From positions 18,414,001 to 18,478,000 of the forward strand of contig CM114271.1 in NCBI GenBank assembly GCA_050084515.1: a DNA stretch of 64,000 nucleotides. Direction: 5' to 3'. Within the stretch, counting starts at the first letter, position 1. Every line of letters starts with the position of its first letter. The stretch is from Blasia pusilla (lineage: Eukaryota). The position numbers were made by a program, and so were the translations under genes. The notes under the pieces are model-generated. The model did no database searches and was not told the origin of the DNA. It worked only from the letters and a program-made list of their open reading frames with translations. Shown one piece after another: positions 4,776 to 62,400 of the stretch.

Positions 4776-5471
4776 ACATTATAAAATATGGTTATCTCTA
4801 AATTCACTAGTTCAAACTTTATTTCCAACCAAAGTAAAGTCTTTCCGGAGTTTGTAAAGGTTTGAGGGTTAAGAAGTATCCTATGACCGATCACTTTCCC
4901 TCTACATTATATTTGGAGTTTTGTAAGGCCGGGAAGTTCAGAAGTATCCTATACATGTTTACTTTTCTCTTACAATTAGAATACTTTTGGGCCCTAACAT
5001 TTTGAAGTATTTATGATCTCTCTCGTTGTGTCTTCAATATAATTTTTTTTTCCAATTGTCTATTGCAATGAACCACTCATCAGGATTAACAATTAATATG
5101 TTATTAAATTTTGAGATGAAACATTTTATCTTGTTTGTCTTTGAACCACATAGAGTATAACTCTCTTGTTGATAAATCGCAGGGCAATCCAATTAGCTAC
5201 AATCGTTAAGAGGTTATTATGATCCAACTCAATTTGATTAGCTATTATAGTCATGGAATCTAACCCCATCTAACTAAATGGTTTCTATTATTTTGATCAT
5301 GTGGAATTACAACTTTCAACTCATACTTTCGTAGATATATATCATCACAATGATCAAAGTTAGGACCAAATTTAAATTTTCACATCGTTAAAAGAAATTG
5401 GGTCTAATGATTATACTCACCATATCACCAATTGCAATAGTTTGGATAGACACATTTAAAGATGTTCACTT

Positions 5472-12610: not shown

Positions 12611-12689
12611 ATCAGCTACCCCATGGACCGTCCATGTGGCATGCCCATCTCAAAGAAGTTTTCGGCTAATCATACTCAACTTCTCAATT

Positions 12690-14280: not shown

Positions 14281-14289
14281 CCGTAGTCT

Positions 14290-17979: not shown

Positions 17980-18640
17980 GTGCAACTTGTCAGAGTTGGA
18001 TGGGTTGCACAGTACGAGGGTGCAACGATTCCTGCGTCTTAAGAATACAATGCGAGGTCACTCTGCAACCGGTCGGACTCCGATGGGTTCCACGATGAGC
18101 ATTGATCTTGCCCAGTTCCTGCAACCCGTCGGACCACCACGGGTTGGATAGGGTCCATCTAGCCTCGGTCCCGTGCAACCCGTCGCAGTCACAAGGAGCA
18201 TTCATCTTGCCCAATTCCTACAACCCTTTGGACCAGGTTGGGTTGCATGGGGTCCATCTAGCATGAGTCCCATGCAACCCGTCGCACTCCCACGGGTTTG
18301 GTGGGGACCATTCAGCCTAATTCGTGTAACCCATTGGAGTCCAACGAGTTGCATGGAACCCACGTTGCCTAACTTATGCAAGGTCGGGGAGTCCGATGGG
18401 TTAGCGTGTGGGGGGACCCGGGGGACAAGGGTTCTGGGTCCGTTTATTTTGCAATCCGTCGGACTCTGACAGGTTGTAGGCCCCTGGCAGATCTTTCCCG
18501 TGGAATATGACTTAATTCAAGTCGTCGAACTACGTTTAGGGTTAGGGTTCATTCCGTTGTCATCCCTTCTTATTTCCAATCCATTGGACTCTGACGAGTT
18601 GGAGTTTCCCTTGAGTCTACCTTCCAACCCGTCCGGCTCT
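17980..18640. repeat. Cluster 2 of the same 27-bp palindrome
   Basis: Repeated gcaacccgtcgg...gggttg variants at ~17982, 18065, 18121, 18175, 18274 and 18451. Confidence 0.85.
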
Positions 18641-20759: not shown

Positions 20760-23700
20760 TCTTTCTTTTCTTTGCATCCCCATATTCTTGCTCTATAGGA
20801 GTGCAAGCTAAAAATCTGAAAACTCCTTCTCTACCTTCAAAGGACCATCTCTCAACTTCTCCCTCTTCCTTTCATGACCTACTCATACAATAAGGAATTG
20901 AACCGGTCTTGTTCCATCCTTATTTCAAATACAGGCATAATAAGACCCATCATCCATGACTTTGGTCTCCAGTCTAGATGCTGTGATGTAAGGTTGCCCA
21001 AGAATCATAGGATAAGTAGCTCCATTCTGAACAAAGAAATTTTGCTTAATCAACGCATCTCTGATACGAGTTTTGACGTATGGACAAGCACCGTAGAGTT
21101 CACCTTTTTGGTTGTTAGCCGCTCGTAGAACCCATCCATGCCCTGTATCAATTGGCCACATCCCTTTGTCGTATACACTTCGCGACATGATGTTGATCTC
21201 CGAATCATGATCAACGAGAGCCAGATCTGACTCTTGAAGAGAGCCAAGTCAAACTGTAGCCTCCGTCGTTGCACTTGCCCAATATGACCGAGAATAGTGT
21301 CCACCATTGTGCCTTTCTTCACCTTGTTCTGTCAAGGCTTCTCCTACTCTCGCCTCTTCTTCCCTCTTCTTCCCGTAAGTCAAGCTTTAGTCCAAAAACT
21401 TGGCAAAGCTCTTCATCTTCTTCTTCTGTGATGTCCGTATCCAAAGCCCTCACCATCACCATATCTGCAGTCATCTGCCTCTTCCTTTTGATCAAATCTA
21501 TCATCAACTCATGAAAGTCACATTTGGTTATTCCCAAGAATCTCCTTTAAATTCGTTCTTGTCCCTATATTAGACAGCAACTTGTATGTAGGAGTCTTAC
21601 CCTTGGTCTTTTGAGAAGACCTCAATTCTTTCTCCTTCATTCCACCTTCTTTCATTTAAGAATCCATCATAGATTCAGATGTAGAAGTACCTTCTTCTCT
21701 TGATGGTTGCGCCTTTGGTTACCCTTTCCTTCTTGCGGTCCTCGCTCTTCTTGCAGCTTCCTCGGGATCAACACCATCATTGTTGCGCCTCCTCTTCTCC
21801 TCCACACAAGCATCTTGCAAACTCACATGTTTCTCTTGTGCTAGGTATGCTTTAACACACCCAGCTTCCACTGGATCATCCCATCCAGTCACATGATGGA
21901 TAGTCTCTGCCCCTCGTATCATCACTTCTCGAGGAAATTGTAATGATTCACTTTTATATACAGATACAATAGGCGCTTCTATTTTTACTGCAAAGGTATC
22001 AGAATCTAATACCCTAGTGGCAACTCCTACTTGACTTCTCACTAAGCCTTCCATTCCTTCTCAACCAAAGTTGGTATTCAACGGCATGTCAGTCTACGTT
22101 GAATGAATCTTCCCATCTTTGAAGTTTACAATTCCATTATTAAGAGCTTCAGAAAACTCCTCACATTCTCGACGTTTATGCTCAACACTATCTCACAAAG
22201 TTCCTACTTGTCGAAGGAGCACCAACACTAGGATTCCTATCAAGTTTATGCTCACCCATTTCTACTCTCAATTCTCTCAAACCTTTCACCAACTCATCTA
22301 TAGCAGAATCTTCAAGTTTTGTTGAAACGAGCTTAGGCAATGGATTCGAAATTGATACCTCCGACTTGAATAGTGCGGTTCTACCTCTACTTCGGTTTTG
22401 CTTTGTAAGGATAACAACATCTTCTTCCACTTTCTTCCAATAAGTGCTGACCTCTCCTTCTTAGGTCTTGTCCACCAACATTATGAAAAGCTTGTCCTCC
22501 TAATTCTCGTCAGCCGCCTCAAGGAATAACTCAGTTTTCCTCAAGTCTAGAGTTGCTCTTTCGGAAGAAGAAAGTTAAAAAACACCGCTTCTCAAACTTA
22601 CGCAATAATTCATTTGGAGTCATTTCCTTCCCTAGACGTTGCCCTATCTATTCTAAAAAACTCCTCTTAGTCACCCTATCCACATCATCATCGAAAAATT
22701 TTCCTTTCAGCAACTGCTCATACTCCTCCCACAAGGTTGGATTTTCTGCTCTCAACTTCTTTACTTGACTACGAATCTCTGGTATTAGAGCTAACTCAAA
22801 ACTTGACACCATGTCACCTTTGGATACAAGGTTTACCTCCATCTCATAGACGTTCTCTCAAACATATTTGGTGATGTTCCTCCCATAAAATCTCCCCAAC
22901 TTCTTTACAATCGCTTGAAGAGCCCTTGTTGATCTTTGCTCTCCTATGTGAACTCCTCCTCGTTGGGAGAAGATCCTCTGCTCCCTTAGTTCCCATTGAT
23001 GAAGTACTACCAAAAGTAGTCATCTTGATAAGATTCCAACTTGAAAATACAATCTACCGCCTCAAAGATCTCTCAGTGGAAGCACCATTTGTCGTATCGA
23101 GAGCCTTTCTTCGAGTAAGGGAAGGCCTTCTAGCTGCGGAAGACGTGGTCGATGCAAGGTGAACTCTCTAAGAAGTTCTCCTTTCTCAATACAAGATTAT
23201 TATGTATACTCTCCATTCCTCATGATAGGTATCACAGATGGAAGTGCCGAGACGATCACTTCTTCGTAACATCGGACCCCGATATTCTTAACTATAAAAT
23301 CCTTATAAACTACTTTACGCTTGTACACGAGGAAGATAGCGCAATTAATGTTGAACCCTACTTGAGCAGGCCTATTGACGTCCATGAATCGCTATATAAG
23401 GACAAACAAAGTACAATTCCATGTCCTTCCATATGTGACGATAGGAAGAATCACCGGTATTGGAGATTTTATGATCTGGTTCATGAACGCCTCCCCAAAA
23501 TGATAAATTAAATAACGAGTGAACCAGTGCCTATCTAGAAAGAGTATCTTGATATGGTGTGGATTGAGGAGAGAAAAGTCATGCACTACTTGTGCTCCAC
23601 CCCTATCCATGTTTGACAGATAATTTCTATTCTCCTCAAGAATGGGCTTTGGCGGAGTTATTATCCCAAGAGGGGTAATCCACTCTCATAAGCAAAGTAA

Positions 23701-24368
23701 CAAGCCAAAACATTCACTATTTTAGTATGACTAAACTCCTATAAGATTATAAACCTCTCATCTCCATACACACACACACCACACTCTAGAAACCTCTCGG
23801 AGAATAGACCATGCTCAAGTTACTCTCCCAAGAAGGTGATCCACTCTCATTGGAAGAAAAAACCATCCTAAAGCCATACACTCAAGAGTGACATGAGAGA
23901 CTCAAGATGTGCAATAGAAGGTGATGAACCCTTGAAGGTCCCTCCTCTTTACATACTCACAAGTAATCCACAAGAGTACAAAATAGAGCTAATCTTATCT
24001 TGTGCCACATGGCTTCCTCTCAAGGCTTATCCAATCACATTTTGACACGAGTAGATTTCCTCTTATCTCTTCCAAAATATCCTCTTTTATCCATTTGATA
24101 TTTTCCAAATTACCCCAACTAACCTAGCCACCAACCAAGCCTACTTTTTCTTTTCATTAAATCACCATCCTCACTACTTCACTTTATAAAGTTATCTTTT
24201 ATTTATTACCTCTTTTCTTAAAGTTGGGCCCGCATAAAAGAGGCACCATAAAGAGATTTAAACATGAGAATTTCCTTTTCCTGAGTTAATTTATTTAATA
24301 CTAATAAAACTCTATCTAACACTTAACGAGGAAGGATTTTACACACTGGCTGATTTTACTATATGACA
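20760..24368 (-). mobile_element. Truncated Gypsy element (5' LTR, gag, aspartic protease) inserted in the MULE-like element
   Basis: LTR at 23434-24368 and gag-like ORFs at 22648-22842, 22188-22430 and 21719-22054. Protease LVDHDSEIN...MILGQPYI at ~20925-21220. Confidence 0.75.
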
Positions 24369-24610
24369 CCGTCGGAATCCGACGGGTTGCTATTTTGGTC
24401 AGAAAAAAGTTCACCATGCAATACGCCTGAATCCGACGGTTTGCAATTTTTTCTGAAAATTTTTCATCGTCCAACCCGTCAGAATATGACGGGTTGTTAT
24501 TTTTTTTTGAAAAAATTTCACAATGCAACACGTCGGAATCCGACAGGTTGCAAGTTCCTTAAAGCAAGATAAATTAATCTTGCAACCCGTCCAATTTTGA
24601 CGGGTTGCAA
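24369..24610. repeat. Cluster 3 of the 27-bp palindrome
   Basis: ccgtcggaatccgacgggttgc at 24369, with further variants to 24608. One more copy lies at ~26302-26328. Confidence 0.85.
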
Positions 24611-30098: not shown

Positions 30099-30290
30099 TT
30101 AGTTTGCACGTTTCACGTTATATATAGTTGGGAGGATGCCCCAACTATATATAGTTGGGGCATATCCATTGTCTCCAAGGAACCCTAGTAAAAGGTGGTG
30201 CAAACATGCCATATGCCATCCTCTCAAACATCCATCACATACTAGCATAGCGATTGCACAACGGAACCACACAACATACATCGCAATCCT
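30099..30290 (-). pseudogene. Isolated PHD-finger fragment of the Gypsy family
   Basis: MLVCDGCLRGWHMACL matches the PHD at 41878-42015. Confidence 0.75.
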
Positions 30291-30469
30291 ACAAGAACTA
30301 CTGCTAAGCTCGGATCAACTGTACCGCGAATGTTCAGAAGATGACATGGATGACAAGAATGCAACTAACGATAGAGCCACCTCCAAGAGATAGAGCTTGA
30401 GAGCTCATTCTCTATTTGTAAATTGATCAAACCTCTCACAACAACAAAATCTCACATGGTGTGCATAGT

Positions 30470-32492: not shown

Positions 32493-35400
32493 AAAGAGTG
32501 GGTTATCACACGCCGCTTCTACCGTTGTTGAGAAGGTCAAGAAGAAGGTAATATACCACATCCTAAAGTATGCTTTAATATGAACACTTTCACATACTTT
32601 TTCTCTCTCTCACTAAAACTCGTTTGGTGTAGATAAAGATAAGATTTATCATACTCATGCAAGCATTAGTGAGAAAGGCAAGTGACAGTTATAAATTCCC
32701 AAGGTGAATCTCTCTACCAATTCTTGTTTTCATTTTATGATATATTTATTTCATTTTTTCTTGCTGAAATATGGATACAAAAATTATGTAAACCTCGCTA
32801 AAAAGAAGTGGAGATTGTGAGAATAAGTTGCATAATTTATTATTGTACATCCTATTTGTTGTATAGGTGAAGCAATAATAGACATACATGTTCCACCAGA
32901 ACTGAAGAAGAAGGTTAAGATAGCCAACGAATTGGTTGGGAGTGTGGGTAGTATGTCAAAGTGTGATCTAAAAGTGCTGAACACCAAGAAGCAAAGGGTA
33001 AATATTAAAGCTTTGCTCCATTTGCAAGTAGAGTTTATGTGTTCTTTGTGGACATGTGACAACACTATGCATGCATGTGTGTTTCCTTTTTCATTTTCAT
33101 GTACCCAACTAGGTGAGGCTTGGGGGTTTGGGGTTTAGGACCATAAGCCTCACCCAACCAGGTGAGGCTTGTGGGCTTTTCAAGGAAGTTATCTATAGAT
33201 GGATGGAGCTTCACCAAGATAATGAATGTGGTTATAATAGTTAATCAACTATTGGAATGTTTTTATGGTGGCATTTAATCAATTATTTTGGATTGGCATG
33301 TGTAGTGATATTTGGGAGATGTGTATCCATGGGAAGGATATTGGTCTTGGATTGGTCAAGGTGGACCTAAAGGATACAATGTATTCTGACTACAACTATG
33401 GGAGCCGAACACAATGGATGAACATGCTCAACTCACACTAGGAGATGCGATAAGGACTTCTATCATTTGGCTAGAGTTAAATGAAAAAAAGCTTGCTTAT
33501 TAGATATTCTGATTTTGATAACTTTTCAGAGCTTTGGAGATGGCACAATGACTTCTTCAAGCCATTCTTTTATCTTATTTCCACAGTTTTCATTCAATCT
33601 CTATTTTGCTAATTTCCATATTGAGAAGATTGTGACTCTTATCTATAAGGACTCCTTAGGTTGGGATTTTATTGTACACAACGGAGCTATGAATCTACAT
33701 ATATGTCATCTTCACGATTGTGATTGTGTCACATCTGAGTAGCCGATAAGCCGAGATCTATCGTGGATAGGCGTAGGATCCAGCGGACTATCTTGAGTGT
33801 AACTTTGTCCCACAGTGTCGGATGAGGTTGAGGATAGATCCATTGTGTCAGGAACGTTGTTTCTGACAACTTTCATGTTGAGGTCTTTCACAGCCGGATG
33901 ACTTGTTGACCAGGTCACCCGCCCCTGGTAACCTGTGCGCGCAAATTACCAAGGGGAGGGCTATTTTTAGGGGAAGAGCCTTTTGGCTCTTCCCAACCCT
34001 ATATAAGAGAGGAAGATGGCTTTCTTAAGCCATCTTTCTCATGTTAGGCCCTTGGAGCACCTCCCTTGTATGTGTGTGAGATAGGACTAGGGTGCTAGCG
34101 TCCGGATTCCTTGACAGCACAGGGTGGACGAGGCTCGATATGCCGATGTAGATTGAGGAGTGGAGTTTTAGGCCAGGTGTGCTGTTCTTACTACTCTTTA
34201 TTTTTACATGAGAAAGATGGCAGGGGGCTAGTGGGAATTCGTTGTTTGCAGGAAGGCAAGCGAGTTGCCTTCGTCGAGAGCCCCTCGAGACGCGTGTGTT
34301 GCGGGTGTTTGTCATTTTTCTGTTTGGAAGGCCGTGGGCGGAAGCGCTGTCCTTTTTTCTTATATTTTTGTGGTGCAGATTGATGGGGACAAGAAAGAGG
34401 TGTAAGAGTTGCAGTTGCGGACGGGCAGTATAACATTGTCTACTAGCCGGAATGTCGGGATTTTGTAGGAAGGAGAGTTAGGGCTTGCAACCGCCGAGGG
34501 GCTCTGAAGTAAAGGGCGGCTAGGTCGTGAAGGCTAGGGTTAGGGCGACGAGCGTGTACGGGCGGCAGACGGGTGGTGACGAGCGGCAACGAGCGCTCAC
34601 GAGCGCGGGCAGGCGGCGACAGGCGCTGACGGGCGGCGACAGGCACGGACGGCGCGCGCGCCCCCTGCAGGTAGGCCACGGTGGTCGTGGGCCACCTCTC
34701 CTCCCGTTTAGGGCCAAGGTCCCAAGGTGCGGGCCAAGGTTCCCCCCATTTAGGTAACGTGGTGGCAGGGAGGATGTCGATGTGGTGAGTGACCGATATA
34801 GTTGGACAACGGACGTGGATGATGTTGAGCTACGTGGTTGAAAGTTCGGATGTGGTCGGGCAAGGCCGGATGTGGTCAGGGTCATGTTCACGTGGTCGGA
34901 CAGGGCGTACGTGGTAGGAGTGGAGCCCGACCAGGGTGTGTCAGGTTACATGCCGCGTGTGGGGATGGACGGAGAGGTTTGCATGGCATGATGTTTTTGG
35001 GGCGCGACACGGCATTGCGAGAGTTTACGATGGAGGGGCAGTGCGCATGATGCCGACGGGTTGTCTGCATCTGTTGACGGGAGGATCGACGTGTTGGTAA
35101 GAGGAGAGTGTTGTGTTGCGGAGGTTGTCATATCATATGGAGGAGTGCATGTTGACGGTGCAGCAGGTTGGAGGGCGTGATCACGTTACCCTTTTGAGTC
35201 CCTTTTCCCGCACTTGTCATGTGTGATTGAGAGTGTTGGGTATCGGGTAGTAGCTGGTGCTAGGTGGGTGCAGTGATGGTGACGAGTGTAGATTCTGTTC
35301 ATGTGTAGCATGTTGGTGGATATACGGCGGTTGTCGAGTAGGGGTCGCATGTATGACCCGAGAGAGTGTTGCTAGGTTAGATGAGTCAGTTGGGAGGCTC

Positions 35401-35739
35401 ACGGTGAGCCCGAGTGTTGAGTATGCGTGAGGCCGGGTGTGTCATCACGGGATTGAAGTTAGCATAGGTGAGCTAGTGAGGAGTGTGGAAGACTCTCGAT
35501 GAGTCTGAGTGCTTGAGCAGGTGAGACAGGGTTGTCATCACGGCATTCTTCCAGGGATCAGAAGAACGGGGTAGTGCGAGCAGTAGTAATGGTGTGACAC
35601 GGAGTGGAGTGAGATACCGAGGGGTTACCAGTGAGGAGCTACCTCGACATCCATCCGTGGCAGGATCGTCATCACTAGACATTGGGTCGGGTGACGAGAT
35701 CGCAGACAGAGACAGTAGTACTTGGCAGGAGATGGACAA

Positions 35740-37320
35740 CATGGGCCATCGGGGCATGCGTCGTTTCTTGGGTGCAGTGGGCACCATAGACTAAGATGAT
35801 TTTATCTAGGAGTTCGACACGTGGTGCGACTTCCAGGAGATACCGACCCCGACGCGGTTCAACCCTTTCATGTCATGGAAGGGGTTGTTCCAGCACTTGG
35901 AGGATCCTCCGATGGATGACTACATGGAGTTTCGATCACTATATTCAGTAGAGATTGATGCCTGGAGGATGTATTGGGCTCCAGTGTATGTGTCCACTAG
36001 TGGTCGCGAGGCATATGATGGGATTGTGAGAGGAGGGAGACCCACACCATGAGCCCGAAGACTAGATGGAGAGGAGGGCAGTGACACAGGCGATGTGGCA
36101 GAGACCTCTAGTGGTAGAGGGCAACCCAGCTTCAGCCCCACAGTGGAGTTCTTCCGACAGTTGGGGAAGAGCTACCAGGGCGTACGCACCGACAAGCTGA
36201 AGAGTCTGCAGGATTTTCAGCGACGATCGGGTGAGAGTCTGAGACAGGAATTCACATGCATGAGGAGGCTGATTATTGCTACGTTTGGAGTGACTGAGAC
36301 GCAGTCACTGTAGTATTGGTAGGGGGTTCTGGATCAAGAACTACGGAGGAGAGTCCAAGATGAGGTGCTGATTCACACAACGAAGCCCACATTGAAGGTG
36401 GTCTTTGAGTTTTCTGAGCGTATTGAGCTCAACATGAGTGAGGAGCAAGTAGTGACCGCTGGATTTCTCGAGAGTCGACGGGTCCACGAGCGACGGTCAC
36501 CCCACAGGTGCCACAGCAATCACTAGTACCACGGGAGCGGGCCAGTGTGCCCACAGAGCAGGGCGGGTATCGTGAGCCTATGAGGCAACAACCCGTACCT
36601 ATATATGTTGCCCAGCAGGGAACGATGTGGTCTTGTTGGACGTGTGGAGGGGCCCCTAGGCATAGAGACTGCCCACAGCATGGGAGAGGACCACTAGTGC
36701 CTTTGATTGCTCAGGAGCCATAGAGGATGGCCCCACCACAGATATGGTCATACTAGGGATAGATGTTTTGACCTTCGCCGAGGGGCACGTCCAGAGGTAG
36801 GCCGAGAGCATGGGGGCGGTCGTCCTGCAGGAGGTCGGGGAGTTCTTCCTGGACGTGGTGGTAGAGGACCACCACCAGCCATAGGAGATGGAGTAGGAGC
36901 ACCAGAGCCGGCACTTCTCTGCCTAGAGAGCAGGGCGGGTACCGTGAGCCTATGAGGCAACGACCCGCACCTACATATGTTGCCCAATAGGGACCGACGT
37001 GGTCTTGTTGGACGTTTGGAGGGGCCCATAGGCAGAGAGACTGCCCATAGCATGGGAGAGGACCACCAACGCCTCTGATTGCTCAGGAGCCACAAAGGAT
37101 GGCCCCACCACAGCACCAGTGTGACCATTGCCACAGATATGGTCACACTAGGGATAGATGTTTTGACCTTCGCCGAGGGGCACGTCGTCGGAGGTAGGCC
37201 GAGGCCTGGGCGTCGTCTGCGGGCAGAGGTCGGGAGTTCTTCCTGGACGTGGTGGTAGAGGACCACCACTAGCCAGAGGAGATGGAGGAGGAGCACCAGA
37301 GCCGGCACTTCTCTCACGCA
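35740..37320 (+). pseudogene. gag with zinc knuckles
   Basis: LKSLQDFQRRSGESLRQEF is a retrotransposon gag motif. Knuckle-like motifs CWTCGG...HRDCP and CDHCHRYGHTRDRC are present. There are many stops. Confidence 0.8.
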
Positions 37321-37718
37321 TCGATCAGTTGGAGTAGAGGATTGTTGCCATGACGATGATGCAGCTTAGGGAAGGCACGCAGCTGCGAGCAGCTAGTGTG
37401 ACTCCAGCTTCTACCTCTTACCCTGACCCGGGTGAGGATCTTGCTAGTATGGGATTTATGTGTAGTGCAGCCCAGGTTGAGGCAGTTGCAGTGGTGACTC
37501 AGGGTGTTGCAAGAGGCACCGAGCCATCGAGAGGTGGAGTTGAGATTGACCCACCAGAGGGGACCGATGGGCAGCAGGCCAGGGTTCCATAGCCATTCAC
37601 ATTGTCAGAGGCACTACACACACCATCGATGGTGCCTCGACGACCAGCAGTGCCTACAGCTCAGGCACCTATGTCGACGTCACGAGGAGTTGGAGTGACA
37701 ACTCCTATGCCGGCTTGA

Positions 37719-38440
37719 GTGGAGTTAGTGTCAACCATAGTGTTGGAGGTGGCCACCAGAGTGAGTCAGACTCCACTATTTTCCGCCATAGAGTTGGCGA
37801 CGTTGGGAGTTGGACCAGCTGAGGTGTTCTGGTTGGCCGCCACGTTGGGTGAGCATGGAGAGATGACTGCTTCTTGTTCAGAGGAAGTTGAGGAGGTGGT
37901 GGACTTGCCCTCAAAGCCCGTGCTCGGGATGTTCCCCACCGAGTTATGGCATGCGGCGGCGACGAAGTTGGTAGATAGGCCAGCTCGAACGGCCATAGAG
38001 CGAGCAGTGGTGATACTTGGAGTAGTGTTATTGGATAACCGAGCTGGAGTATTTTTCTTGGTTAGTCCGACAGGGACAGTATACCACCCGCAGCGCGTCC
38101 TATTTGCCTCGGGAGCGCAACCCTTGATGTTAGGGAAGGCGGCGTGTTTAGCGTCGGGGTTACGGAAGGCCGACATTAAGCCTTGTCCCTTCCAGATACG
38201 GACCTCGATTGGGGGCGTGTCACCCACGTTGTATATGACTCGACAAGAGATAGTTGTCAGAGTCCAGCCAGAGCATGAGACGGATAGTGCTATGGTGCGC
38301 ACATGTGCGATTACGACACTTGTTGAGTCGTACCATGTGTTGGTGGGGAGTACAGTGTTATATCCCCTAGGATTCATCCTTGACTTCTAGGAGGAGACCG
38401 TTGCTTATCGGCCAGAATGGCAGTCAGGTGACGGCCCGAT
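37719..38440 (+). pseudogene. Retropepsin-type aspartic protease (catalytic Asp lost)
   Basis: RVLFASGAQPLMLG corresponds to the usual LLDSGA motif; VLVGSTVL is the second motif. Confidence 0.7.
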
Positions 38441-38820
38441 GAGTTAGCTACCCGTGCAATTTGCACGACAAGGTGGTCGATCACGAGGCGAGTCTGTGAC
38501 CACGTTGGCGGCTTTCACAGGTAGTGTTAGTTGGCCAGGAGAGTTGTTGGAGGGGAACGCACATGCGGAGATTGTCCCAGTAGCGGATAGTCCCACGGAG
38601 AGACAGGCCATGGCGGGTGTCTCTTCCCATGTTGGCAAGACCTCTTCACCATTGTGGGGTACGACTCGAGAGCTACAGAGGAGTGTCGACGACCTCGTGA
38701 GGCAGGCATGGAGTCATGCTTTGATCTTGAAGCAGCGAGAGTCACGTGGCAATCGGGCTCTTGGCGTGGAGACATTGACTGGATACCACACCCATTGTGT
38801 GGCAGTGCCCAGAGGAGGGT

Positions 38821-39700
38821 GTTAGGGTGTTAGATCTCTTTGGAGGGATTAGCACCGGATTGGCGGGCATACGGGTGCATCAGTACCTTTATGTGGAGAG
38901 AGATGAGACCGCGCTGCGAGTATCATTACGTCACTTGGCGAGATTGGTCCAGAGGTATCTTGAGTTGTTGCCGGTATCTGCAGTACGGGGATATCAGCAT
39001 ACACTACCCGCCAACATCTCTTTGGTGGGGGCGCAGGATCTTGATAGAGTTGGCACCATTCATTTGGTGATTGCTAGATGGCCATGTTAGGGTCATTCAT
39101 CAAGCTGGTCGAGGATTTTGATTGCGGGATCCGAAGTCAAGAATTTTTTGGGAGATGTTGCGAGTAGTACGACACTTGCAGGAGAGTCAGACATGTTCTC
39201 TAACGTACATCTTGGAGAACGTGCCGTTGTTGGAAGACACTCGTGCACGTGTGATGACAAGTGTGTATCAGGTGAGGTCCTGGTTGGGACCTGCTGTGTT
39301 ATTAGATGCGGTGAGAGTTGGATCACGTGCATACGATGGAGTCCATAGAGCACCACATCTCACAGTGGATGCTATTTTGGACTCAGGGCGTCGATCTCAG
39401 GTGGTGACATGGGATGATAGACCACCGTTGGCCATGGCCAATAAGGTGGGGGAGTTGAGGGCAGCCTTACCTACGTTGGTGAGCTTCCCAGCATCCCATG
39501 CCTTTTGTCACAGAGGGCCAGGCATGATTTGGGATGAGGTGACCGGAGCATTGGAGGAGCCTACAGCAGATGAGCACGAGCGCGCCATGGGGTTCGCTAC
39601 TGGTACTACGGCGGTGCCAGGGATGATTGAGGCATCCCGGAGACAAGTATTGGGGAAGGCGATGGACCTTAACTCTCTCACATGGAAAGTCAACCTACGT
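38821..39700 (+). pseudogene. C5 DNA cytosine methyltransferase domain (DNMT3-like), copy 1
   Basis: Motif I VRVLDLFGGISTGL, motif II YLYVE, motif IV HLVIARWPC*GHS, motif VI YILENVP, motif IX EHERAMGF and motif X RRQVLGKAMD occur in canonical order. Confidence 0.92.
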
Positions 39701-40089
39701 ATGGCTGAGCAGAGACGGATGCGAGTGTCATCCATGCCGTCACGTCCACGAGTTGGACCATTGCCTATAGGGTTTGTACATGCATTGGTTGGGGGCAAGA
39801 CGAGGAGAGATAGGCATCCATGGACTTCCATGGACGTTGTTCGAGCAGAGAGTGCGAAGGCGGCTCGGATAGCACATATTCATTTTTTGGATGCGGAGCA
39901 TGGTGTAGGAGGTCAGAGTGGAGTGGTTGTTGCGGAGGTGGCTAGGGTTGCTACATAGCAACCAAAGCCGGAGGTTGCGTCCTCTCCGAGTGAGGTCACG
40001 ATGGAGACTTGGGAGCCTATGATAGGTCTCAAGTTGATAGGAGGAGAGCGACGGCGAGTTCATAGGTTTTTGATAGGGCATGTCAATTT

Positions 40090-40795
40090 TTTTCCTTCAG
40101 TATGAGAGACTTGGGTACACTAAAGGGTCCCGGGATACGGATTGAGTTGGCTAGTGATACGCCGATCTTTCGTCGACCCTACAGGTATTCTGATATGGAG
40201 CGAGCCTTGATTCAGAGCAGGAGTTAGGACTTGTTGGAGGCAGGACTTGTGGAGTTATGACATGGGGAGTATGCATTTGCCACAGTCATGCCGGCAAAGA
40301 AGGATATGTATGGCAATTGGACGGATAGGCGGATGTGTGGAGATTACCGTCCTATCAACCAACAGACGAGGTCAGATCGATACGCCATGCCTACTCCTGA
40401 GGAGATCTTTGATGGGGTAGGGCATGCAAAGATCTTCAGTACTTTAGATCTCCGTGCTGGCTATCATCAGCTTCCTATCAGGTTGGAGGACAGGGAGAAG
40501 ACAGCATTCTAGGGGATAGATCGGTTCGGGAGAGATTGCTTGTATCAGTGGAGGTTCTTACCATTTGGATTGAAGAACACGCCTGCAGAGTTTCAGAGAG
40601 TGATGGATAGGATTCTGGCTGGCTTGGATTTTGTACGATGTTACATAAATGATATTCTTATCTTCGGTTCCACGGTTGAGGAGCATGAGCGACAGTTGGA
40701 GGAGATGTTTCGGCGATTGCAGTTACATGGACTGAAGTTACATCCAGGCAAGTGCAGATTCTTTCAGGAGCAGATTGAGTACTTGGGACACACCA
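40090..40795 (+). pseudogene. Gypsy reverse transcriptase
   Basis: RMCGDYRPIN, FSTLDLRAGYHQ, LPFGLKNTPAEFQR, YINDILIF (YxDD changed to YIND) and KCRF...YLGH. Confidence 0.95.
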
Positions 40796-40977
40796 TGGTT
40801 GAACGCCTAACCTATACATAGGTTAATACTGGGATAAATTGAGATACACGTGTGTCCCGTCTGCTGAACGCCTAACCTATACACAGGTAATGACTCAAGT
40901 GGTGGGGTTGGATGATGAGTCTTTCGATCCGGAGGTTAGTGAGGAGGCGACATGTGGTCGTGATATCCATGACGACA

Positions 40978-42018
40978 TGGGACTTTGCGGGACCTTTGCC
41001 ATTGACGGGGCATCATCATAGGTACGTGTTGGTCATGGTGGAGCATTTCTCCAAGTGGATAGATTTGGTGGCACTACCAGACAAGGCGAGCGAGGGAACA
41101 GCTAATGCATTTCTAGATCATGTGCTTATTCACTTTGGTGCACCGACGGAGGTGTTGACTGACCAGGGTACTGAGTTCAGGGGAGGGTTTCAGGCCTTGT
41201 GTGATCAGGCGCTGATAGATCATCGCACCACGTCCAGAGATCATCCTGAGGCGGATGGGTTGGCACATAGAGTGGTACAGACGGTGAAGAGAGGATTGCG
41301 CAAGTATGGCTTGCAGCGGGGACACTTGAGGGAGTGGGACCTACAGTTGCCATGGTTGGCTATGGGTTATCGCTTAAGGCAGCAGGCATCCTTGGCGTCA
41401 GTTTCACTGTACTTTTTGCTCTTTGGGAGAGAGCCAGATGCACCTGCAGCGATTCGACGTGACATGGCGGAGATGTTAGATCTTGATGATCCAGATGTTT
41501 TGGTACAAGCATGTTCTCAGAGGGCAGAAGTTTTTCATAGAGTTATGCCTATGGCCTTTGAGAACTTAGCTATTGCCCAGCATAGAGATACATTGAAGTA
41601 CACGACCATTCGTGGAGGAGGTTATCGTCCAGGGATTAGGAGGTTTCATCCTGGAGATTACGCGTATTTACAGCAGGCGGCACCCACGACGCTAGATGTC
41701 ACTACAGAGCGCATGATCCTACGTGTGCGCGAGGTATTACCGACCGGAGTCCTCATGTTGGAGGGATGGGATGGGATGGTTTGGAAGGATCATGTGCGCA
41801 ATTGTGCGCCATGTCATCTTCCGAACGTAGATGTGACGGTGGATCCGAGCTTGGCAGTGGTACCTGCAAGCTTGAGGTGTATGTTGTGCGGATCTGCGAG
41901 GGGTGCAGCCACCATGTTGGTATGTGATGGTTGTTCTCGAGGGTGGCATATGTCATGTCTGACCCCCCCTCTTGATGTGGTTCCCACGGGACGATGGATG
42001 TGTCCGAGATGTGTATAG
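40978..42018 (+). pseudogene. Integrase core plus C-terminal PHD finger
   Basis: DFAGPLP, VEHFSKW, LTDQGTEF, HPEADGLAHR (usual E lost) and LLFGREP. A C4HC3 PHD lies at 41878-42015. Confidence 0.93.
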
Positions 42019-42649
42019 GGTAGTAGGTCATGTCAGAGAGATGTGATATTTTCTATCTGGAGTTGGGGGGATCCAACTACCAGCTAGGGGGGCGGTTGTG
42101 TGATCTCCATATATATGTATGAGTTGATTTTTGTACATGTGTGGATCGACCCGTGTGTGGGGAAGATTGGTGTTATGTGGTGTAGATGTGACCAGCAATG
42201 TATGTTGTGTAGCGATATGTATGCGCACGACAATTGTGACTATTGCATCCTGAACGTCTCACTCACTCTCTGTTGTTGGGAGATTTTAGAGTCAACAAAG
42301 ACTAATATAACTAGAATGTAATATGCTGCAATAATAAAACGTCAATATTATGATGAAAAAAATAATAACTTACAATAATTATAGTGTGAGTTCTTTTCAA
42401 TAGAACTAACTTAGTCATTTATATGACTAAGCCAATCCAGAAAATAACCAAATTAGTAATTGCATGTGACTCATCCAATCGTTAATATAACTAGTGCAGT
42501 GACCATTATACCAATACAGTCATTTAAATAACTCATGTCTCTACTCATTTGTAATAACTGAGCTAGTTATTTATGATAATGAGCAATGACACAACCAGTC
42601 GCAACTTGACTCATATAGTCATTTTGAATGACTCTATAAGTTGGATTCA

Positions 42650-42822
42650 TAGTACCCATAGCAAACCCCATGGCGTGCTCACGCTCATCAGGAGTAGGCT
42701 CGTTCCAAGGCTCGGGTTTCCTCATCCCATTTCATGGGTACTCCTTCTTGACGAAAAGCATGGGATGTTGGGAAGCTCACCAATGTAGGTAAGGTTGCCC
42801 TCAACTCCTCCACCCTATTAGC
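42650..42822 (-). pseudogene. Third fragment of the retrotransposon DNMT (motif IX region)
   Basis: ANRVEELRATLPTLVSFPTSHAF...ERERAMGFAMGT matches 39436-39610. Confidence 0.8.
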
Positions 42823-43019
42823 TATCGTCTTCGGTGTAGGGTTGAACACAGACAAAGTCCGTCTCCGTAGACATATGCATGTCCATGTCCGCGGACTTAT
42901 GCCCCTCCCTAGGACGAACATGTCTGTGCAGGCTCGGGAACCCGCAGCCCGCACCCGAGACAGCCCCCAAAACCTTCCAAGCCCATAGTAGGCACTCGGG
43001 TTGGCCGAACCCGCACCGG

Positions 43020-46034: not shown

Positions 46035-48673
46035 TTACAAAGGGACCTCTCGTATTTCCAATTCCAAATCGGTTGTATTATCATCCAAATTTACCGTGTC
46101 CAATTCCATGGTGGTTCTCTCTGTATGCATGGGAAGAACCACCAGTTCTGCTCTATGTAGCTCCTGTAACTGGTAGAGTACGTGCGACATCCGGGGTCGC
46201 ATTGAGGGCACATGCTGCGTGCATGTGTAGGCCAGCTCCACCACCTTCTTCACCTGTGAGTAATTTGGAACGGTTCCTATGAAAATGTCTAAGAGTTCTG
46301 TCCATGCTTCCGCCTGGAACAATGGTGTAGCCCATTCGAAAATCGTCGGAGTCTCTGAAGACTCCCCCTCAGCTGCTACAGTGGGCTTACGCCCCGTAAC
46401 TAGCTCCAAAAGCAAAACGCCGAAACTGAAAATGTCGCTCCTGGTGGTGAGTTCATTGCGATATACAAACTCCGGAGCCAAGTAACCATGGGTTCCAACA
46501 ATCACAGTTGGCTCGTGGGTCGCCTCACGTAAAGCCATATTGACAAGCCCCACACCTACGAGGTGGGGATTAAATTGGTTGTCTAAGAGAATCGCACTAG
46601 CTCGCACATTCCGGTGCACCACATTAGGCTTCACTTTGTCGTGTAAGTACCTGTTAGCCAGCAACACCCGCACACGCTTAGAACGGACACGCGGCCTTCT
46701 GATCTAAGTTTTCAAGCTGGCGTAGGCGGCACCTGAATGCTCAGAAACCCTAAGCAGCTGACAGGCAGGGCTCAAGTCGAAGAGGGTAGAAAGACAAAAC
46801 GCCAAGCTCAGATATGGAGACAATCAGGAAGCCGTACAAGAGAAATCCACAAGAGGAGAGGAGAGGAGAGCGGAGGCGCAGCTCTTCGAACGTAAAAACG
46901 AAGTCAGGAGGGCGGGAAACACTCACGCTAGACTATGCGCAACACCGGTAGCAATTTGCATACGCGTGTCCCAATCGAGGGGGCGTGCGCCACTGGGCAA
47001 ATCATGAAGCCATTTTTCCAAGGACCCATTCGATATGAATTCATATACTATGTAGCCCTCGCCGCGATAAAAGCAGCAGCCCTTCATAGCTACCAAGTTC
47101 TCGTGCCTCAAACGTCCAATCTTCCTCATCTCGGCCATGAAATCCTTCTCCCCCTGAACTCCAGATCTCCTTACTTTCCTAATCGCCACGGGAGAGCCAC
47201 CCGGCAGGATACCCTTGAAAGTATTACTATCTTCTGCAGCTCCAAGTTTGTTCTCCAGCGAGAAACCGTCTGTGAAGGCCTCTAATTCCGCGTATGAGTA
47301 CACTCTCCAGAGAGGAGTTAACGGTGTGGTCGCCAGGAACGTGCGATCTCGCCTGCGCCGGCGCCTTCTCTTCGTCCGTCTGTAGGCGAGAAGCCATATC
47401 GTAACTCCTAAAGTTGTCGTTAGAATGACAGAGCTGACCACCGACAGTATGATGATATACTCCTTGTGCGATGACCTGCTCTCACATGACTCGCCTGGAG
47501 CCAAGCGCACGGCTTTAGTAGGTGGGTATAACAAAGTCAATACAGTTACGGAGGGTTATACGAAAACGAAAATTAAGTGGCAAAATTCTGCAGTCCATAG
47601 TCGGGTGGGACCACAGGGGTTTTCTTCGGGGCAGACTGAAGGAGCAAATTTTAGGTGTCTACCCACAACACGTGCATGCAAAAATCCAGGAAAAGCCCAC
47701 AAAAGCCCACCACTGCTGCACATAATCGGATTGATACAAGGAAACCGCCAAGACTTGAGAAATTGAAGCTGGAATTTTATGCCTCCTGAGTGGGACGAGT
47801 ATTATGTGGGATCTAACCTTGGTCGAGACTACAAATAAGAGGATGCCCGGTATCACAGCTCTCCCAAACGAGCGAAGCATTCACAAGCAGCGCACACCAC
47901 CTGACGTTACTGTAGCCAGGGCAGCTCAGATCCGAGCAATTGCTTTGAGGTGCCACTAGTGGAGGGAAAAGTGATCCGTTCCATCGCACGTGACAGTCAA
48001 TCCAATTTGGCTGGAGATAACCGCTACTAGATCCTTGTGCCGATGCTCCTAACCAGCAACCTCCTGGTCCACTGCTATCGCAGAGCGCTTCGAGAAACTG
48101 AACCTCGGTCGTCGACGCGACAGAAGCTAGATGACCACCCTCCGCCGTGCAAGTGTTTTCGGACTCGTTCCAAGTGCTGAAGGTGTTCATCAAGGTGAAA
48201 CAGCGTTGTTCAACCGGTCCGTCTTGCCAGCCACTCGGGCAATGGCCTGCAGATTCCCAACGCACCCCCAATCAATGGTTTCCTTCTCCTTTTCCATCTG
48301 TGCCAAGGGAGGCACCGCTTTGTGCTCCTGTTTGCAAGATATGTTCTCCCTGAGACACAGACGTAAGCTACCTCGATATAAATCGGAAGTAGAACTAACA
48401 TCAATGTGCAGCCATACGCAATACGCTGAACGCCTAAGTTCATTGCTTCTCAGAGTGCGTGTTGGGTGAAAAGTTCACCCGGACGAATGCACTTTGCTCG
48501 GTAACCTCCGTAGAAGTCGAGAGAAAATATTAGTAGGGAAAACTGGAAGCAGGCCAACCTTACGCTAAGAAGATGCGGAGCACGTGCTTACCACATTGAA
48601 TTGTACTGAGACAGCTCAAAATGCACAAGACCACCAGCTCGTACTTTAGTGTGCACCACAAGCATACCCTCAT
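46035..48673 (-). CDS. C-type lectin receptor-like kinase (At1g52310-like), about 564 aa, 4 coding exons
   Basis: Exons 48673-48592 (signal peptide), 48246-47818 (CTLD: CPSGW, WNESENTC, HLAS, WLG), 47494-46927 (TM, basic stretch, kinase N-lobe) and 46650-46035 (GTHGYLAPE, SDIFSFG). All introns are GT-AG and phase-compatible. The first exon is the least certain. Confidence 0.9.
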
Positions 48674-59462: not shown

Positions 59463-62400
59463 TCAAACGCCGCCACCAGTGGTCTCTGGATTTTGAGAGT
59501 CTGAAGGCAATGGTGGCTCATCCACACTGTGTTGGCCACAGAGCAGTGAACCAGTTTGAAAAGAAGGACCAGTTGAAACAATCTGAGTATCACCAGGATG
59601 TGGAACAAGAGTAGGTGCCCAAATGCTTTTTGCAACACTACTTAAAACAGGTGCTTGCAAGGGATGAGGTTGTGCAAGGTACATATTTTCTCTCAGATGC
59701 GATGGTATGTCTGGGGGAGCAACTACATGTATTTTCCCCACAGACGACCCTGATGCACCGAGTCCAAGAGTCCCACTTCCAGACAAACCATCCACTGCAT
59801 TAACTGAATCTCTATGGAGGGCTTCCCAATGCTGCACAAGTTCCTCAGAAGGGCCAACACCTTGAGCACTTTGACGATCTGCTAGAGCAAAAATGGCATC
59901 CATCACAGCATACGGTACATTTTGATTGTGGCCTCCTTGAGCAGTCAAGGTGGGAACTACTTGGGGTGTGGGTCTTACAAACACTCCGACATTGCCTGAA
60001 TTCATAGGCTGCTGTAAAGACTCATTTCGCCACTCATTCTCCATTCGAAGATGGTCTCTTATCGGATCACAGGCTACCTCTGTAGCATCAGTTCCATGAA
60101 CATTGTCCCTCAGCCCTTCAGTTCTTTGAAGATCCTGAACTCCTCCTGGTTCCATGTGCTCTGTAGTGTGGAGTGAGCCAGTTTCATCCCCATCAACATC
60201 ATGCGCTTCTCGAGTAAGACGGGCTGTCATCTTGGACACTGCTTCCTGCACACTACAAAGTTCCGATTTTGCATCTTCGTTCTTATAAAGGACAACCCCC
60301 TGCAAACCACCCATCATACTGTTCCACAGTTCTAAGTTTCCCACAGAAGCCACAGGCCATGACTGTGAACCTTCTCCTGACAGAGTAGAGCCTCCTGCTC
60401 TGCCAAATGTAGAGGGTGCAATAATAGGATCTTTGCATAATTTGGACATAGTATTGGAAGGCATAGAAACAGGACCTGTAGTGGCAGGAGGTACAGGTTG
60501 CCATAACTTATGTGAGCTAGAAACAGCAGGGTGTCCAGAATTGGACTGAGGTTGAGAAAGAAGGGACTGGCCAAAAAGCTTCACATCACCCAGGCGTAAT
60601 CGCTGTGATTCTGATGGAGTTGCCGCTCGTGTCTGTTGTGGCACCAGCATTTGTGAACCCCTCTGTGATTGCACTTGCAGATCCTCCCGAGGATGGAGTC
60701 CCAGCTTAGGCGCACTCCTCTGTTCTATGATGTCAGAATGTCTTAGCAGGTCGGCATCTGAGAAAGAACTTTGATAAGGGCCCCTCAATAATGCCAAAGC
60801 TTGTGAATGTTGCAACTGCTGTTGTTGGAGTTGATGTTGTTGAGCGAGAGAAGGGTGCTCCTTCTGGAGCTGCTGATGTTGTGCTTGTTGTAACTGCTTC
60901 TGAGCTTGCAACTGCATTTGGTGAGCCAATTGCTCTTGCTGTAGTTGTTGTGCCTGTTGAAGTTGCTGAAGGAGCAACTGCTGCTGCTGCTTTTGCTGCT
61001 GCATGATCTGCTGCTGCTGCTGCTGTTGAAGTAAAACTTGTTGTTGTGAAGGGTGATGCCCACGGTTACCAAGTCCAACTTGAGGTCGTTGCTGACCTCC
61101 AACTAGTTTGGGCCTCGGGACTAGTTGCTGCTGATGCACAGAAGATGCAAGAGGTAGGGGCTGCTGGGAATGATGGTGCACTAGTTGGGGCTGAATGTGC
61201 TTTGCAACTTGAGCAAGATGCTGCTGTTGTTGCTGCTGAGCATACACCATCTGCTGTAGCTGATGAACCATGTGCTGCGGTTGGTGAAGCACCAACTGAG
61301 AAGCCTGCTGGTGCTGTTGCTGAAGGTGCTGCACTGCTTGCTGCTGCAGCTGTTGAACAACCTGATCCAAGAGTTGCTTCTGACTTGAATTCATCATCTG
61401 TGGAGTAGCCTGCTGCTGCTGTTGCTGCTGCTGTAGGGCAACCTGTGACGACAGAGATTGCTGTTGTGACTGATGGCCAACCATTACTTGAGGATTTTGT
61501 GCAGCCAAGAGCAAAGACTGCTGGGGACTGGGACCAGGAAATGTAGATACAATGCCTGGCTGAAAAAGAGGCAAGACTCCACCAGAAATGGCAGCTGCAG
61601 AGGAATAGTCCTTTACAGAACACATCCTCCGAATGATCTTTTGCATGTCCCTGGCAGTGGAAGAGTCATCACCAGATTGACAAACAATTGGATTGAACTG
61701 TGCGTATCCTAAGCCTTCTGCACCTACTACTGGTGTTCCAATACTTGTGTTGATAGGCATCATAGAATTAGAACCAACGTTTTGAGACACATCTTCACAA
61801 GGAAGTGATACCTTAGTTGGACAAATTTGCCCAACAGATCCAGCATTGCTGCTAGTATCTGACTCCTCAGCTTTGCGCTTCCTATTACAACCACCCCTCG
61901 TACTTAGACTGACTAAGCTGTCTGTTGACAAGAATCCCAACTTGGCCTTCGAATTCTGATAGTAAGTCTTTATTTGTGTCAAAGACTTAGCTGGTAAACT
62001 GTCATGGAGAAGGGTCCAATCTTTACCATGCCGCCTTATAATATCTGCAAATTTTTCTTTCTCCTCTTGAGTCCATGAGGTCGGCTCCCTCCTTGGCTTG
62101 AACTCCCCTGCTGCATTTACCCTAGGTCCTCTCTCCTTAGCATGCCCACTATGGGCCACAGGAGGTGATGTGACAGCAGCAGAAGGAGTTTGTGGCACAG
62201 GCAATGCTGCTCCAGCTAAGAAGGCTCCACCACTCTCAAGAGACACAACTGGTTCTGACTTTACAACAATTGCATGATTATTCAGATCCGCTTCAGCTGC
62301 AACACACGGGCCACTAGGATCAATTGGTACTGGTGTCGCAATCTGATTGCCAAATTCTTGATCAGATTCTGCTCTGGTAGACTTTGGCACCGTGACTACC

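Follow-up and report, generated by a model that had tools for sequence, protein, structure and literature searches.

A PHD finger in frame with the integrase of a decayed Gypsy-type retrotransposon in Blasia pusilla, assigned by its sequence to a DNMT3-carrying lineage

The stretch of DNA dealt with here, called the window throughout, comprises 64,000 nucleotides (nt) of Blasia pusilla (GenBank assembly GCA_050084515.1, contig CM114271.1, positions 18,414,001 to 18,478,000 of the forward strand) and contains a PHD finger at the C-terminus of a retrotransposon integrase. Finger and integrase core lie in a single frame within a stop-to-stop open reading frame (ORF) of 374 residues (40894-42018, + strand), in which Pfam recognizes the core (rve, PF00665) at residues 28-118 (E 5e-11, 43.2 bits, cut-off 32.6) and the PHD (PF00628) at residues 329-373 (E 4.2e-11, 43.1 bits against a gathering cut-off of 24). 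Residues 329-374 correspond exactly to positions 41878-42015 and are followed by a TAG stop at 42016-42018. All eight ligands are present in the spacing C-x2-C-x11-C-x2-C-x4-H-x2-C-x15-C-x2-C; the stretch is a genuine, complete C4HC3 PHD finger fused in frame to integrase. An earlier note on this DNA had described such a finger, situated where the integrases of chromoviruses carry a chromodomain, and both points are borne out, the former also by the profile search for which that note had asked: no Chromo family matches the ORF at E up to 0.1 in Pfam, and the PHD follows the C-terminal beta module of the integrase. An AF2 model covering the C-terminal 122 residues, predicted without zinc (mean pLDDT 86.7), shows a five-strand module and then the finger, which superposes on solved PHDs with a root-mean-square deviation (rmsd) of 0.7-1.2 Å (Foldseek).

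The element to which this integrase belongs, here copy A, was mapped on the + strand by tblastn with proteins of its relatives (handles of proteins begin with P, those of loci with L). Judged by its sequence, it is a Ty3/gypsy element of the DNMT3-carrying lineage, with gag, protease (PR) and DNMT3, an in-frame stop, reverse transcriptase (RT), RNase H (RH), integrase (INT) and PHD, and with split direct repeats. Its parts are the following:

33798-34167, + strand: 5' repeat A1, the left end as far as detectable (blastn against the 3'-terminal A2 repeat of copy C, 6295-5943: 381 nt aligned, 69% identical)
35720-37575, + strand: gag-like region, decayed (tblastn with residues 64-320 of L004 ORF1, 25% identity, E 9e-8)
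37575-38699, + strand: protease-containing stretch (tblastn with residues 532-909 of L004 ORF1, 32% identity)
38767-39730, + strand: DNMT3-like C5 cytosine methyltransferase (DNMT) domain, broken (tblastn to the DNMT parts of P0013, P0065, P0107, P0121, P0122 and P0309)
39956-39964, + strand: conserved stop with leaky-stop context, TAG CAA CCA, between DNMT and RT (read from the sequence)
40087-40800, + strand: reverse transcriptase, decayed (PF00078, E 6.9e-21 and 3e-4 on two ORF pieces; tblastn with residues 473-715 of P0013, 49%)
40801-40980, + strand: deletion junction, with RNase H and the integrase zinc-binding domain missing (180 nt versus 450-500 residues in relatives)
40981-41877, + strand: integrase catalytic core and C-terminal beta-rich module, in frame with the PHD (PF00665, E 5e-11)
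41878-42015, + strand: PHD finger (PF00628, E 4.2e-11; PDB matches down to E 2e-16; AF2 model)
42095-42194, + strand: 3' repeat B1 (blastn, 77% identity to 5912-5813)

Near the left repeat, at about 34 kb, G+C content steps from 0.39 to 0.55. The gag assignment is weak, and Pfam finds no family in the three ORFs of this region (35810-36049, 36053-36310 and 36442-36720); the region also contains a tandem duplication (36548-36920 and 36920-37314, about 372-394 nt, 85% identical) that includes a stretch resembling a Cys/His knuckle. Further along, residues 985-1225 of P0132 match 37980-38690 at 33%, and residues 1-156 of the Marchantia relic P0006 match 38310-38780 (tblastn). Concerning the methyltransferase, Pfam gives no match on the two window fragments, and the domain was identified through relatives; in the intact relative P0013 it has its best PDB matches in DNMT3B, DNMT3A and DNMT3C (E about 1e-6). 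Copy A reads DLFGGISTG in motif I, whereas in motif IV W-P-C is followed by TAG (39088-39090) in place of the Q or V of relatives; a frameshift comes after it, before 39122. The RT contains an internal stop (40510-40512) and has YIND at YxDD, where relatives have YIDD. Short direct repeats (40800-40830 and 40865-40895) are situated by the deletion junction. The integrase region is 80% identical to P0316 and 78% to P0318 of Calypogeia fissa; its catalytic Glu has become His (ADGLAHR versus ADGLAER in relatives). At the 3' end, family homology stops at about 42240 and the expected repeats A2 and B2 are missing, such that only A1 and B1 are kept; no plain pair of long terminal repeats (LTRs) was found around copy A. 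As a side observation, the changes that destroy the motifs of the DNMT (39088-39090) and of the RT (YxDD, 40650-40670) are single transitions resembling the deamination of methylated cytosine. The former, CAG to TAG in the PCQ motif, is read directly from the sequence; the latter, GAT to AAT, is deduced from the translation YIND, not from the codon.

Four further copies, all on the - strand, are found in the window:

9125-12612, - strand: copy B, with DNMT (11684-12612), stop context (11505-11512), RNase H (10732-11238), integrase (9523-10569) and PHD (9125-9262) (tblastn, translations, pattern search)
5831-8071, - strand: copy C, with integrase zinc domain and core (7380-8066), frameshifted PHD relic (6590-6713) and 3' repeats (tblastn, blastn)
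30148-30445, - strand: copy D, integrase C-terminus and PHD relic, frameshifted (tblastn)
42651-42861, - strand: copy E, an inverted DNMT fragment just past the 3' end of copy A (tblastn)

The five copies are dead without exception. Copy B is without an RT core and has many stops, and copy E forms an inverted repeat with 39423-39608 (80-83% complementary). DNA identity among the copies amounts to 67-75% over longer aligned stretches (blastn), and they are therefore old. When the 46-residue finger was compared with the window by tblastn, it was found at three further places, all on the - strand, as the earlier note had held; the finger is complete, however, only at 9262-9125 (83% identity, E 1e-23, C4HC3 in one frame). 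The other two are frameshifted relics, the one at 6713-6590 being readable only across the frameshift, and the one at 30263-30148 being split over frames with its last Cys pair decayed (CPNY).

The stop codon between DNMT and RT is a conserved character of the family. In 29 loci, a near-complete DNMT match is found at most 900 nt upstream of the RT, and both share a frame in 24 of them. In each of these 24 the RT probe is preceded, at a distance of 99-107 codons, by a stop (20 TAG, 4 TAA) with CAR-YY directly after it, and in 9 of the 24 it is the sole stop between the two domains. The intact-looking locus L004 has its two ORFs (976-5082 and 5086-8226) in the same frame. Copy A keeps TAG CAA CCA at 39956-39964 (+ strand) and copy B keeps TAGCAACT at 11505-11512 (- strand). 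UAG-CAR-YYA is the leaky-stop signal of the tobamovirus type, according to a passage in PMC3542737. By number alone the motif does not stand out in the window, with 13 matches where 14 are expected; its significance lies in the homologous position. To judge from these sequences, the family probably makes RT-RH-INT-PHD by readthrough of the Gag-PR-DNMT frame, in which case Gag-PR-DNMT would be the main product and the readthrough part the minor one. Since the conserved stop and RT, RNase H and integrase lie between DNMT and PHD in the lineage of the window copies, the two do not form one reader-writer polypeptide there; if the stop is read through, writer and reader of this clade would be made at different levels, not fused. 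Of the proposal that the element encodes a reader/writer pair like DNMT3 with its ADD domain, one part therefore stands, as the same element family carries a DNMT3-like domain, whereas the other does not: the PHD is not an ADD, and DNMT and PHD are not one polypeptide in this lineage.

Concerning the repeats, the two plain LTRs of a Ty3/gypsy element are not found; relatives have split direct repeats instead, in the order A1 ... B1-A2-B2, in four of ten related loci (L037, L080, L035 and L010). Repeat A measures about 320-340 nt and repeat B about 115 nt; in L037 the element spans about 9.3 kb. This pattern is matched by copy C, whose 3' end on the - strand carries B (6426-6506), A (5943-6295) and B (5831-5911), and the B1 repeat of copy A fits it as well. 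Copy C and these four loci thus combine DIRS-like repeats with Gypsy-type domains, a combination that the legend to Fig. 4c in PMC5890265 words as 'repeats as in DIRS, domains as in Gypsy'. The order PR-RT-RNase H-INT with a DDE integrase is found in relatives, and in the window over copies A and B combined.

The family was gathered by searches with the INT-PHD part, which gave 191 matches among longer proteins and 314 among proteins of similar length, the best 120 of 191 and the best 120 of 314 being listed. Among these, the closest named relatives are from liverworts, i.e., Calypogeia fissa (P0318, 78% identity to the window INT-PHD) and Marchantia polymorpha (P0006, P0355 and others, 68-75%), followed by Coleochaete scutata (P0003, 67%), Sphagnum fallax (P0341, 60%) and Klebsormidium nitens (P0325, 47%). 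Four chlorophytes among the matches listed, Tetrabaena socialis, Hariotina reticulata, Chromochloris zofingiensis and Haematococcus lacustris, are represented by several proteins, four of those listed having 42-51% identity, and matches in Closterium species were found from the DNMT side. P0325, a partial model with INT and PHD and without DNMT, is 84-87% identical to P0022, a member of the clade of the window copy.

Two architectures were recognized by domain probes and by profiles built on the matches. The order DNMT-RT-RH-INT-PHD (type A) is that of the window copies, P0013, P0014, P0083 and P0154/P0309, whereas type B has the order RT-RH-DNMT-INT-PHD, with the methyltransferase directly before the integrase in a single ORF, and is represented by 97 of 270 proteins gathered (e.g., P0065, P0107, P0121 and P0305). 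Many type B proteins continue for 150-250 residues beyond the PHD, and P0089 carries a G-patch family (PF01585) in the precomputed Pfam assignments. In a FastTree analysis of the INT-to-PHD part (141 rows), the type A rows, together with 30 rows whose ORF starts just upstream of the RT, make up one starred clade of 34 rows (96), and the remainder is type B or unclassifiable; an IQ-TREE analysis of 81 rows without the PHD columns agrees with this grouping, both trees being unrooted and drawn at the midpoint. Named hosts of type A are all streptophytes, those of type B all chlorophytes. A cluster search for the nearest relatives lacking both PHD and DNMT gave generic animal Gypsy clusters only and was uninformative on chromovirus ancestry.

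Seven Marchantia models named 'PHD-type domain' or 'hypothetical protein' (P0006, P0355, P0357, P0366, P0372, P0386 and P0390) are relics of this retrotransposon family; P0006 (Mp_7g09570), for example, is a deletion relic that joins pieces of protease, DNMT and integrase. These models are likely an annotation carry-over of transposon fragments.

Whether PHD and DNMT occur together across related elements, which the earlier note had named as a check, was followed from both sides, and the association holds with nested exceptions. With the window DNMT fragment as query, phmmer gave 708 representatives (E up to 0.001), 150 of them listed; 25 of these 150 extend beyond the integrase core by 190 residues or more, and each of the 25 has a PHD. 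On the DNA side, 80 metagenome loci were sampled that are related to P0271, in the cluster of P0001 (74% identical to the window copy). Of the 36 loci that extend far enough upstream, 35 have a DNMT before the RT (all but L002), and of the 62 that extend far enough downstream, 61 have a PHD after the integrase (all but L075); in the 27 loci that allow a verdict on both domains, both are present without exception. The DNMT region of P0013, used as a query, gave four proteins, all with PF00628, a sample too small to count. A precomputed Pfam column calls the divergent DNMT in 15 of 120 rows, whereas the profile search found many more; since it under-calls the domain, the column was left out of the counts.

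The PHD is, on sequence evidence, a family-wide module under purifying selection. The full C4HC3 pattern is kept in 140 of 146 family proteins with a match to the PHD profile. PHDs that read H3K4me3 have a cage Trp two residues before the ligand His. In the window PHD the residues up to this His are G-W-H, with G at the position in question, as the earlier note had pointed out, and among the 140 family PHDs this position is held by G in 130, A in 8, P in 1, L in 1 and Trp in none; the residue directly before the His is aromatic in 131 (W 85, Y 41, F 5). An Asp directly after the third Cys is found in 132 of the 140, including the window PHD.

The best 60 PDB matches of the window PHD comprise CHD4, PHF12, DPF2/DPF3, PHD1 of KDM5A/B/D and of Lid, PHF21A (BHC80), KMT2C/D, ATXR5, KAT6A/B, BAZ2A/B, AIRE, WSTF, CHD5, UHRF1/2, ORC1B, PHF10, EHD3, Cph2 and RCO1; neither ING, BPTF and TAF3 nor chains bearing an ADD were seen among these 60. 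By its sequence, the reader in the window is an ordinary single canonical PHD and not an ADD. In Foldseek, the predicted finger superposes on DPF3b (5szb, 5i3l; rmsd 0.7-0.9 Å), MOZ (4lk9; 1.0 Å), BAZ2A with unmodified H3 (4q6f, 5t8r; 1.2 Å), UHRF1 with unmodified H3 (3zvy; 0.8 Å), BHC80 (2puy; 1.0 Å) and ATXR5 with H3 (5vab; 1.9 Å), and 3t6r is another entry titled as an unmodified-H3 complex in the group with 0.7-1.2 Å. The PHDs that bind the unmodified H3 tail (KDM5A/B PHD1, PHF21A/BHC80, AIRE PHD1, CHD4, BAZ2A/B, ATXR5 and UHRF1) match with E 2e-16 to 3e-10 and rmsd 0.7-1.9 Å over 45-53 columns. Like the window PHD they lack the cage Trp, and they share with it the pattern C-D-x-C-x-x-G-[WY]-H...P-P-L-x-x-x-P-x-G-x-W-x-C-P-x-C, whereas the first loop of the window finger is not acidic. 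By sequence and predicted fold, then, the window PHD is closest to PHDs that were solved with the unmodified N-terminal tail of H3. The PHDs of BHC80 and AIRE and PHD1 of KDM5 are readers of H3K4me0, and the family PHD may read H3K4me0 likewise.

On this basis we favour, with a probability of roughly 0.6, a reading in which a decayed element of the Gypsy-DNMT3 lineage carried an integrase whose PHD tail tethered it to H3 unmethylated at K4, while its DNMT3 acted separately. In active elements, the PHD would tether the complex of integrase and cDNA to nucleosomes with an H3 tail unmethylated at K4, and insertions would then fall away from active promoters, in parallel to the chromodomain of chromoviruses with H3K9me (as summarized in part of PMC6673714). 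The DNMT3, which precedes the leaky stop and would be translated together with Gag and protease, would outnumber INT-PHD; it would work on the cDNA or the newly inserted copy as a protein of its own and would not be part of a reader-writer fusion. An action of the DNMT on the cDNA or the new copy is among the hypotheses discussed for retrotransposon DNMTs in general (PMC5890265).

Several observations weigh against this reading or parts of it. In the K4me0 readers BHC80, AIRE and KDM5, the acidic residues that contact the K4 amine usually lie in the first loop. This loop contains no acidic residue in the window PHD (GSARGAAT) and 0-1 in the window PHD and its closest relatives, the means being 1.26 for the streptophyte clade (n=35) and 2.48 for the chlorophyte clade (n=75); the N-terminal side of the first Cys (SLRC) is without an acidic residue as well. 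With both stretches non-acidic, the usual K4me0 contact cannot be assigned from the sequence of the window PHD, and the evidence thus speaks more for the unmodified H3 tail as ligand than for K4me0 in particular. The UHRF1-type neighbours are, by their entry titles, readers of R2, not K4, so that 'unmodified H3 tail' is also for this reason the safer wording. The PHD is less constrained than the integrase core (pooled pN/pS 0.40 versus 0.27 in the same nine stop-free copies), and the median pN/pS over 47 PHD copies is 0.59. Concerning the pairing, a DNMT without a PHD is found in P0309/P0154, in P0314 and its cluster mates P0310, P0311 and P0313, and in P0263 of Closterium, which extends only 151 residues beyond the integrase core and counted as 'cut' in the 81-row tree; this DNMT-bearing, PHD-less lineage forms a starred clade (99) nested in type A. 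P0068, P0046 and P0054, nested in type B, have conversely a PHD without a DNMT in frame. As both kinds of nested lineage exist, either module can do without the other. P0070 ends in nothing more than a divergent Cys/His-rich tail, and two tails of the PHD-less DNMT lineage have a short basic motif near the end in common (VYQRR+). For the DNMT, no methylation was seen when the isolated domain of KnitGypsy-Dnmt3 was assayed in yeast, a result called inconclusive by its authors (PMC5890265). Finally, within this one window the five family relics all lie in the 38 kb rich in transposable elements (5-43 kb) and none in the genic 20 kb (44-64 kb); this distribution had been held to fit targeting while selection might explain it too, and both indeed fit it equally, the clustering being equally expected from selection against genic insertions.

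A broader idea goes beyond the favoured reading and is put forward as tentative: the DNMT3 writer and the H3-tail-reading PHD could be an ancient, near-constant pair in one Gypsy lineage of chlorophytes and streptophytes, present in two domain orders and cooperating as an epigenetic kit borne by the transposon. With the PHD steering a new copy into K4-unmethylated chromatin and the abundant DNMT adding methylation to it, the element would be hidden in silent chromatin of its own making; the chlorophyte DNMT-INT-PHD could even be one mature protein and a true convergent analogue of DNMT3-ADD.

The PHD might instead mainly serve the DNMT3 of the element, recruiting or licensing methylation on H3K4-unmethylated nucleosomes in the manner of an ADD, such that the new copy or its surroundings would be methylated only in chromatin already silent. 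The presence of both modules in all 27 loci judged and in all 25 listed proteins of sufficient length would agree with such a role, and so would the chlorophyte proteins with DNMT directly N-terminal of INT-PHD in one ORF (P0065, P0107 and P0121); the inactivity of the isolated Klebsormidium DNMT in yeast, inconclusive as it is, would fit a need for partner domains. In the clade of the window, however, the conserved stop, RT, RNase H and integrase separate DNMT from PHD, the PHD is not an ADD, and lineages with only one of the two modules exist on either side, all of which makes this role unlikely.

That the PHD binds another ligand (H3R2, H3K9me3 as is reported for PHD2 of CHD4, acylated K14 as in DPF fingers, or a non-histone host protein), with a role in nuclear import, intasome assembly or host-factor tethering, is rather improbable. 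Its structural neighbours do include, by entry title, UHRF1 with PAF15 and Stella peptides and DPF fingers with H3K14 acyl marks, and the acidic first loop is lost in the subclade of the window. Acyl reading of the DPF type, however, needs a tandem finger, whereas the finger here is single, and the aligned tail binders have in common with the family both the P-x-G-x-W-x-C tail and the conserved Asp that follows the third Cys (in 132 of 140). Hardly credible, finally, is an origin outside a transposon, either as a domesticated integrase or as an exon from a host gene for a PHD protein: Marchantia models named only 'PHD-type domain' (Mp_7g09570, Mp_2g13720, Mp_1g18210 and others) do match at 68-75%, but the frame is continuous with the integrase core, RT and DNMT relics riddled with stops lie upstream in family order, the feature is repeated four more times in the window, the terminal repeat of the family follows, and P0006 (Mp_7g09570) is itself a deletion relic with protease, DNMT and integrase pieces.

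Outside the family copies, the window contains two host-like frames, both on the - strand: a gene for a C-type-lectin receptor kinase at 46035-48271 (Pkinase E 3e-18, Lectin_C E 6e-6) and, at 59463-63998, a glutamine-rich open frame of 1511 residues that runs off the window end. Two direct repeats of about 1.36 kb (13009-14372 and 23089-24372; 87-93% identical, 10.08 kb apart) bracket about 8.7 kb with few long ORFs and no Pfam match in those tried; the pair may be another, non-autonomous LTR element. Considered as a source of an outgroup integrase, it was rejected, as no retroelement domain was found inside, in the ORFs tried. Two tandem units of 99 nt (82% identical) are situated at 18091-18288.

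The organization of the window family is most similar to that reported for KnitGypsy-Dnmt3 of Klebsormidium nitens, in which a DNMT3 lies within a Gypsy element (de Mendoza et al. 2018, PMC5890265): both have a methyltransferase of the DNMT3 type inside the Gypsy coding region, DIRS-like repeats and a streptophyte host. Elements of this kind in streptophytes bear the group name 'Gypsy-DNMT3' in a 2026 preprint (10.64898/2026.05.21.726589). For the 2018 report on Klebsormidium, a passage in PMC12344493 writes 'LTR Copia and DIRS', which differs from the 'Gypsy' of the original. The acquisition was placed 'in the K. nitens lineage' (PMC5890265), whereas relatives are found here in liverworts, a moss, Coleochaete, Closterium and, with the other domain order, chlorophytes. 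The term 'PHD' does not occur in the main text and legends of PMC5890265, whose Fig. 4c drawing and supplements may show a PHD. Full-text searches likewise found no passage on a PHD of Gypsy-DNMT3, on the pairing of PHD and DNMT, on presence in chlorophytes or on the leaky-stop context, with the same reservation that figures or supplements may show a PHD.

Chromoviruses, as far as described in parts of PMC6673714 (citing Gao et al. 2008) and PMC6317226 (for the clades), likewise have a small histone reader at the integrase C-terminus, with a proposed role in chromatin-guided integration; they carry a chromodomain for H3K9me, whereas the window family carries a PHD, likely for the unmodified H3 tail, the distinction being drawn by the reader domain and not by RT/INT phylogeny. 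The algal clade Chlamyvir was considered as PHD-bearing and rejected, its papers describing chromodomains and mentioning no PHD. A green-lineage Gypsy polyprotein with a PHD finger is, however, REM1 / Gypsy-7a_cRei of Chlamydomonas reinhardtii, for which the legend in PMC9940879, the sole basis of this comparison, gives GAG, PROT, RT, RH, PHD and INT, i.e., no methyltransferase and the PHD before the integrase. More generally, PHDs and chromodomains borne by retrotransposons are stated to be widespread in portions of PMC6673714 and bioRxiv 2021.11.30.470311. A captured reader of chromatin or DNA marks is also present in the CopiaMBD elements of arthropods (a passage in PMC6673714) and in the EpiLTRs, which according to the accessible part of the 2026 preprint (10.64898/2026.05.21.726589) add 6mA and 5mC methyltransferases to a Chromo domain; there, however, neither the readers (MBD, Chromo) nor the writers (DAM, DNMT4-like) nor the hosts are those of the window family, as far as these parts of the two sources go. 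In animal DNMT3A/3B/3L, finally, a reader of the H3K4me0 type is likewise associated with a writer of the DNMT3 class, whereas in the clade of the window a stop codon and three enzymes lie between the DNMT and the PHD, which is single and canonical and sits on the integrase.

The window copy is a dead fossil member of a kind already published, and the family-level picture is a modest extension of it. The family constitutes a retrotransposon lineage that carries both a predicted DNA-methylation writer and a predicted histone-tail reader; it seems far wider than the single published alga, comprising liverworts, a moss, Coleochaete, Closterium and several chlorophytes, and intact-looking copies such as L004 exist. 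In practical terms, several Marchantia gene models annotated merely with a 'PHD-type domain' are relics of this retrotransposon family. If it is true that the PHD guides integration, it would represent a second, independent route to chromatin-targeted insertion beside the chromodomain, and would help to explain why a transposon retains a gene for the very mark that silences transposons.

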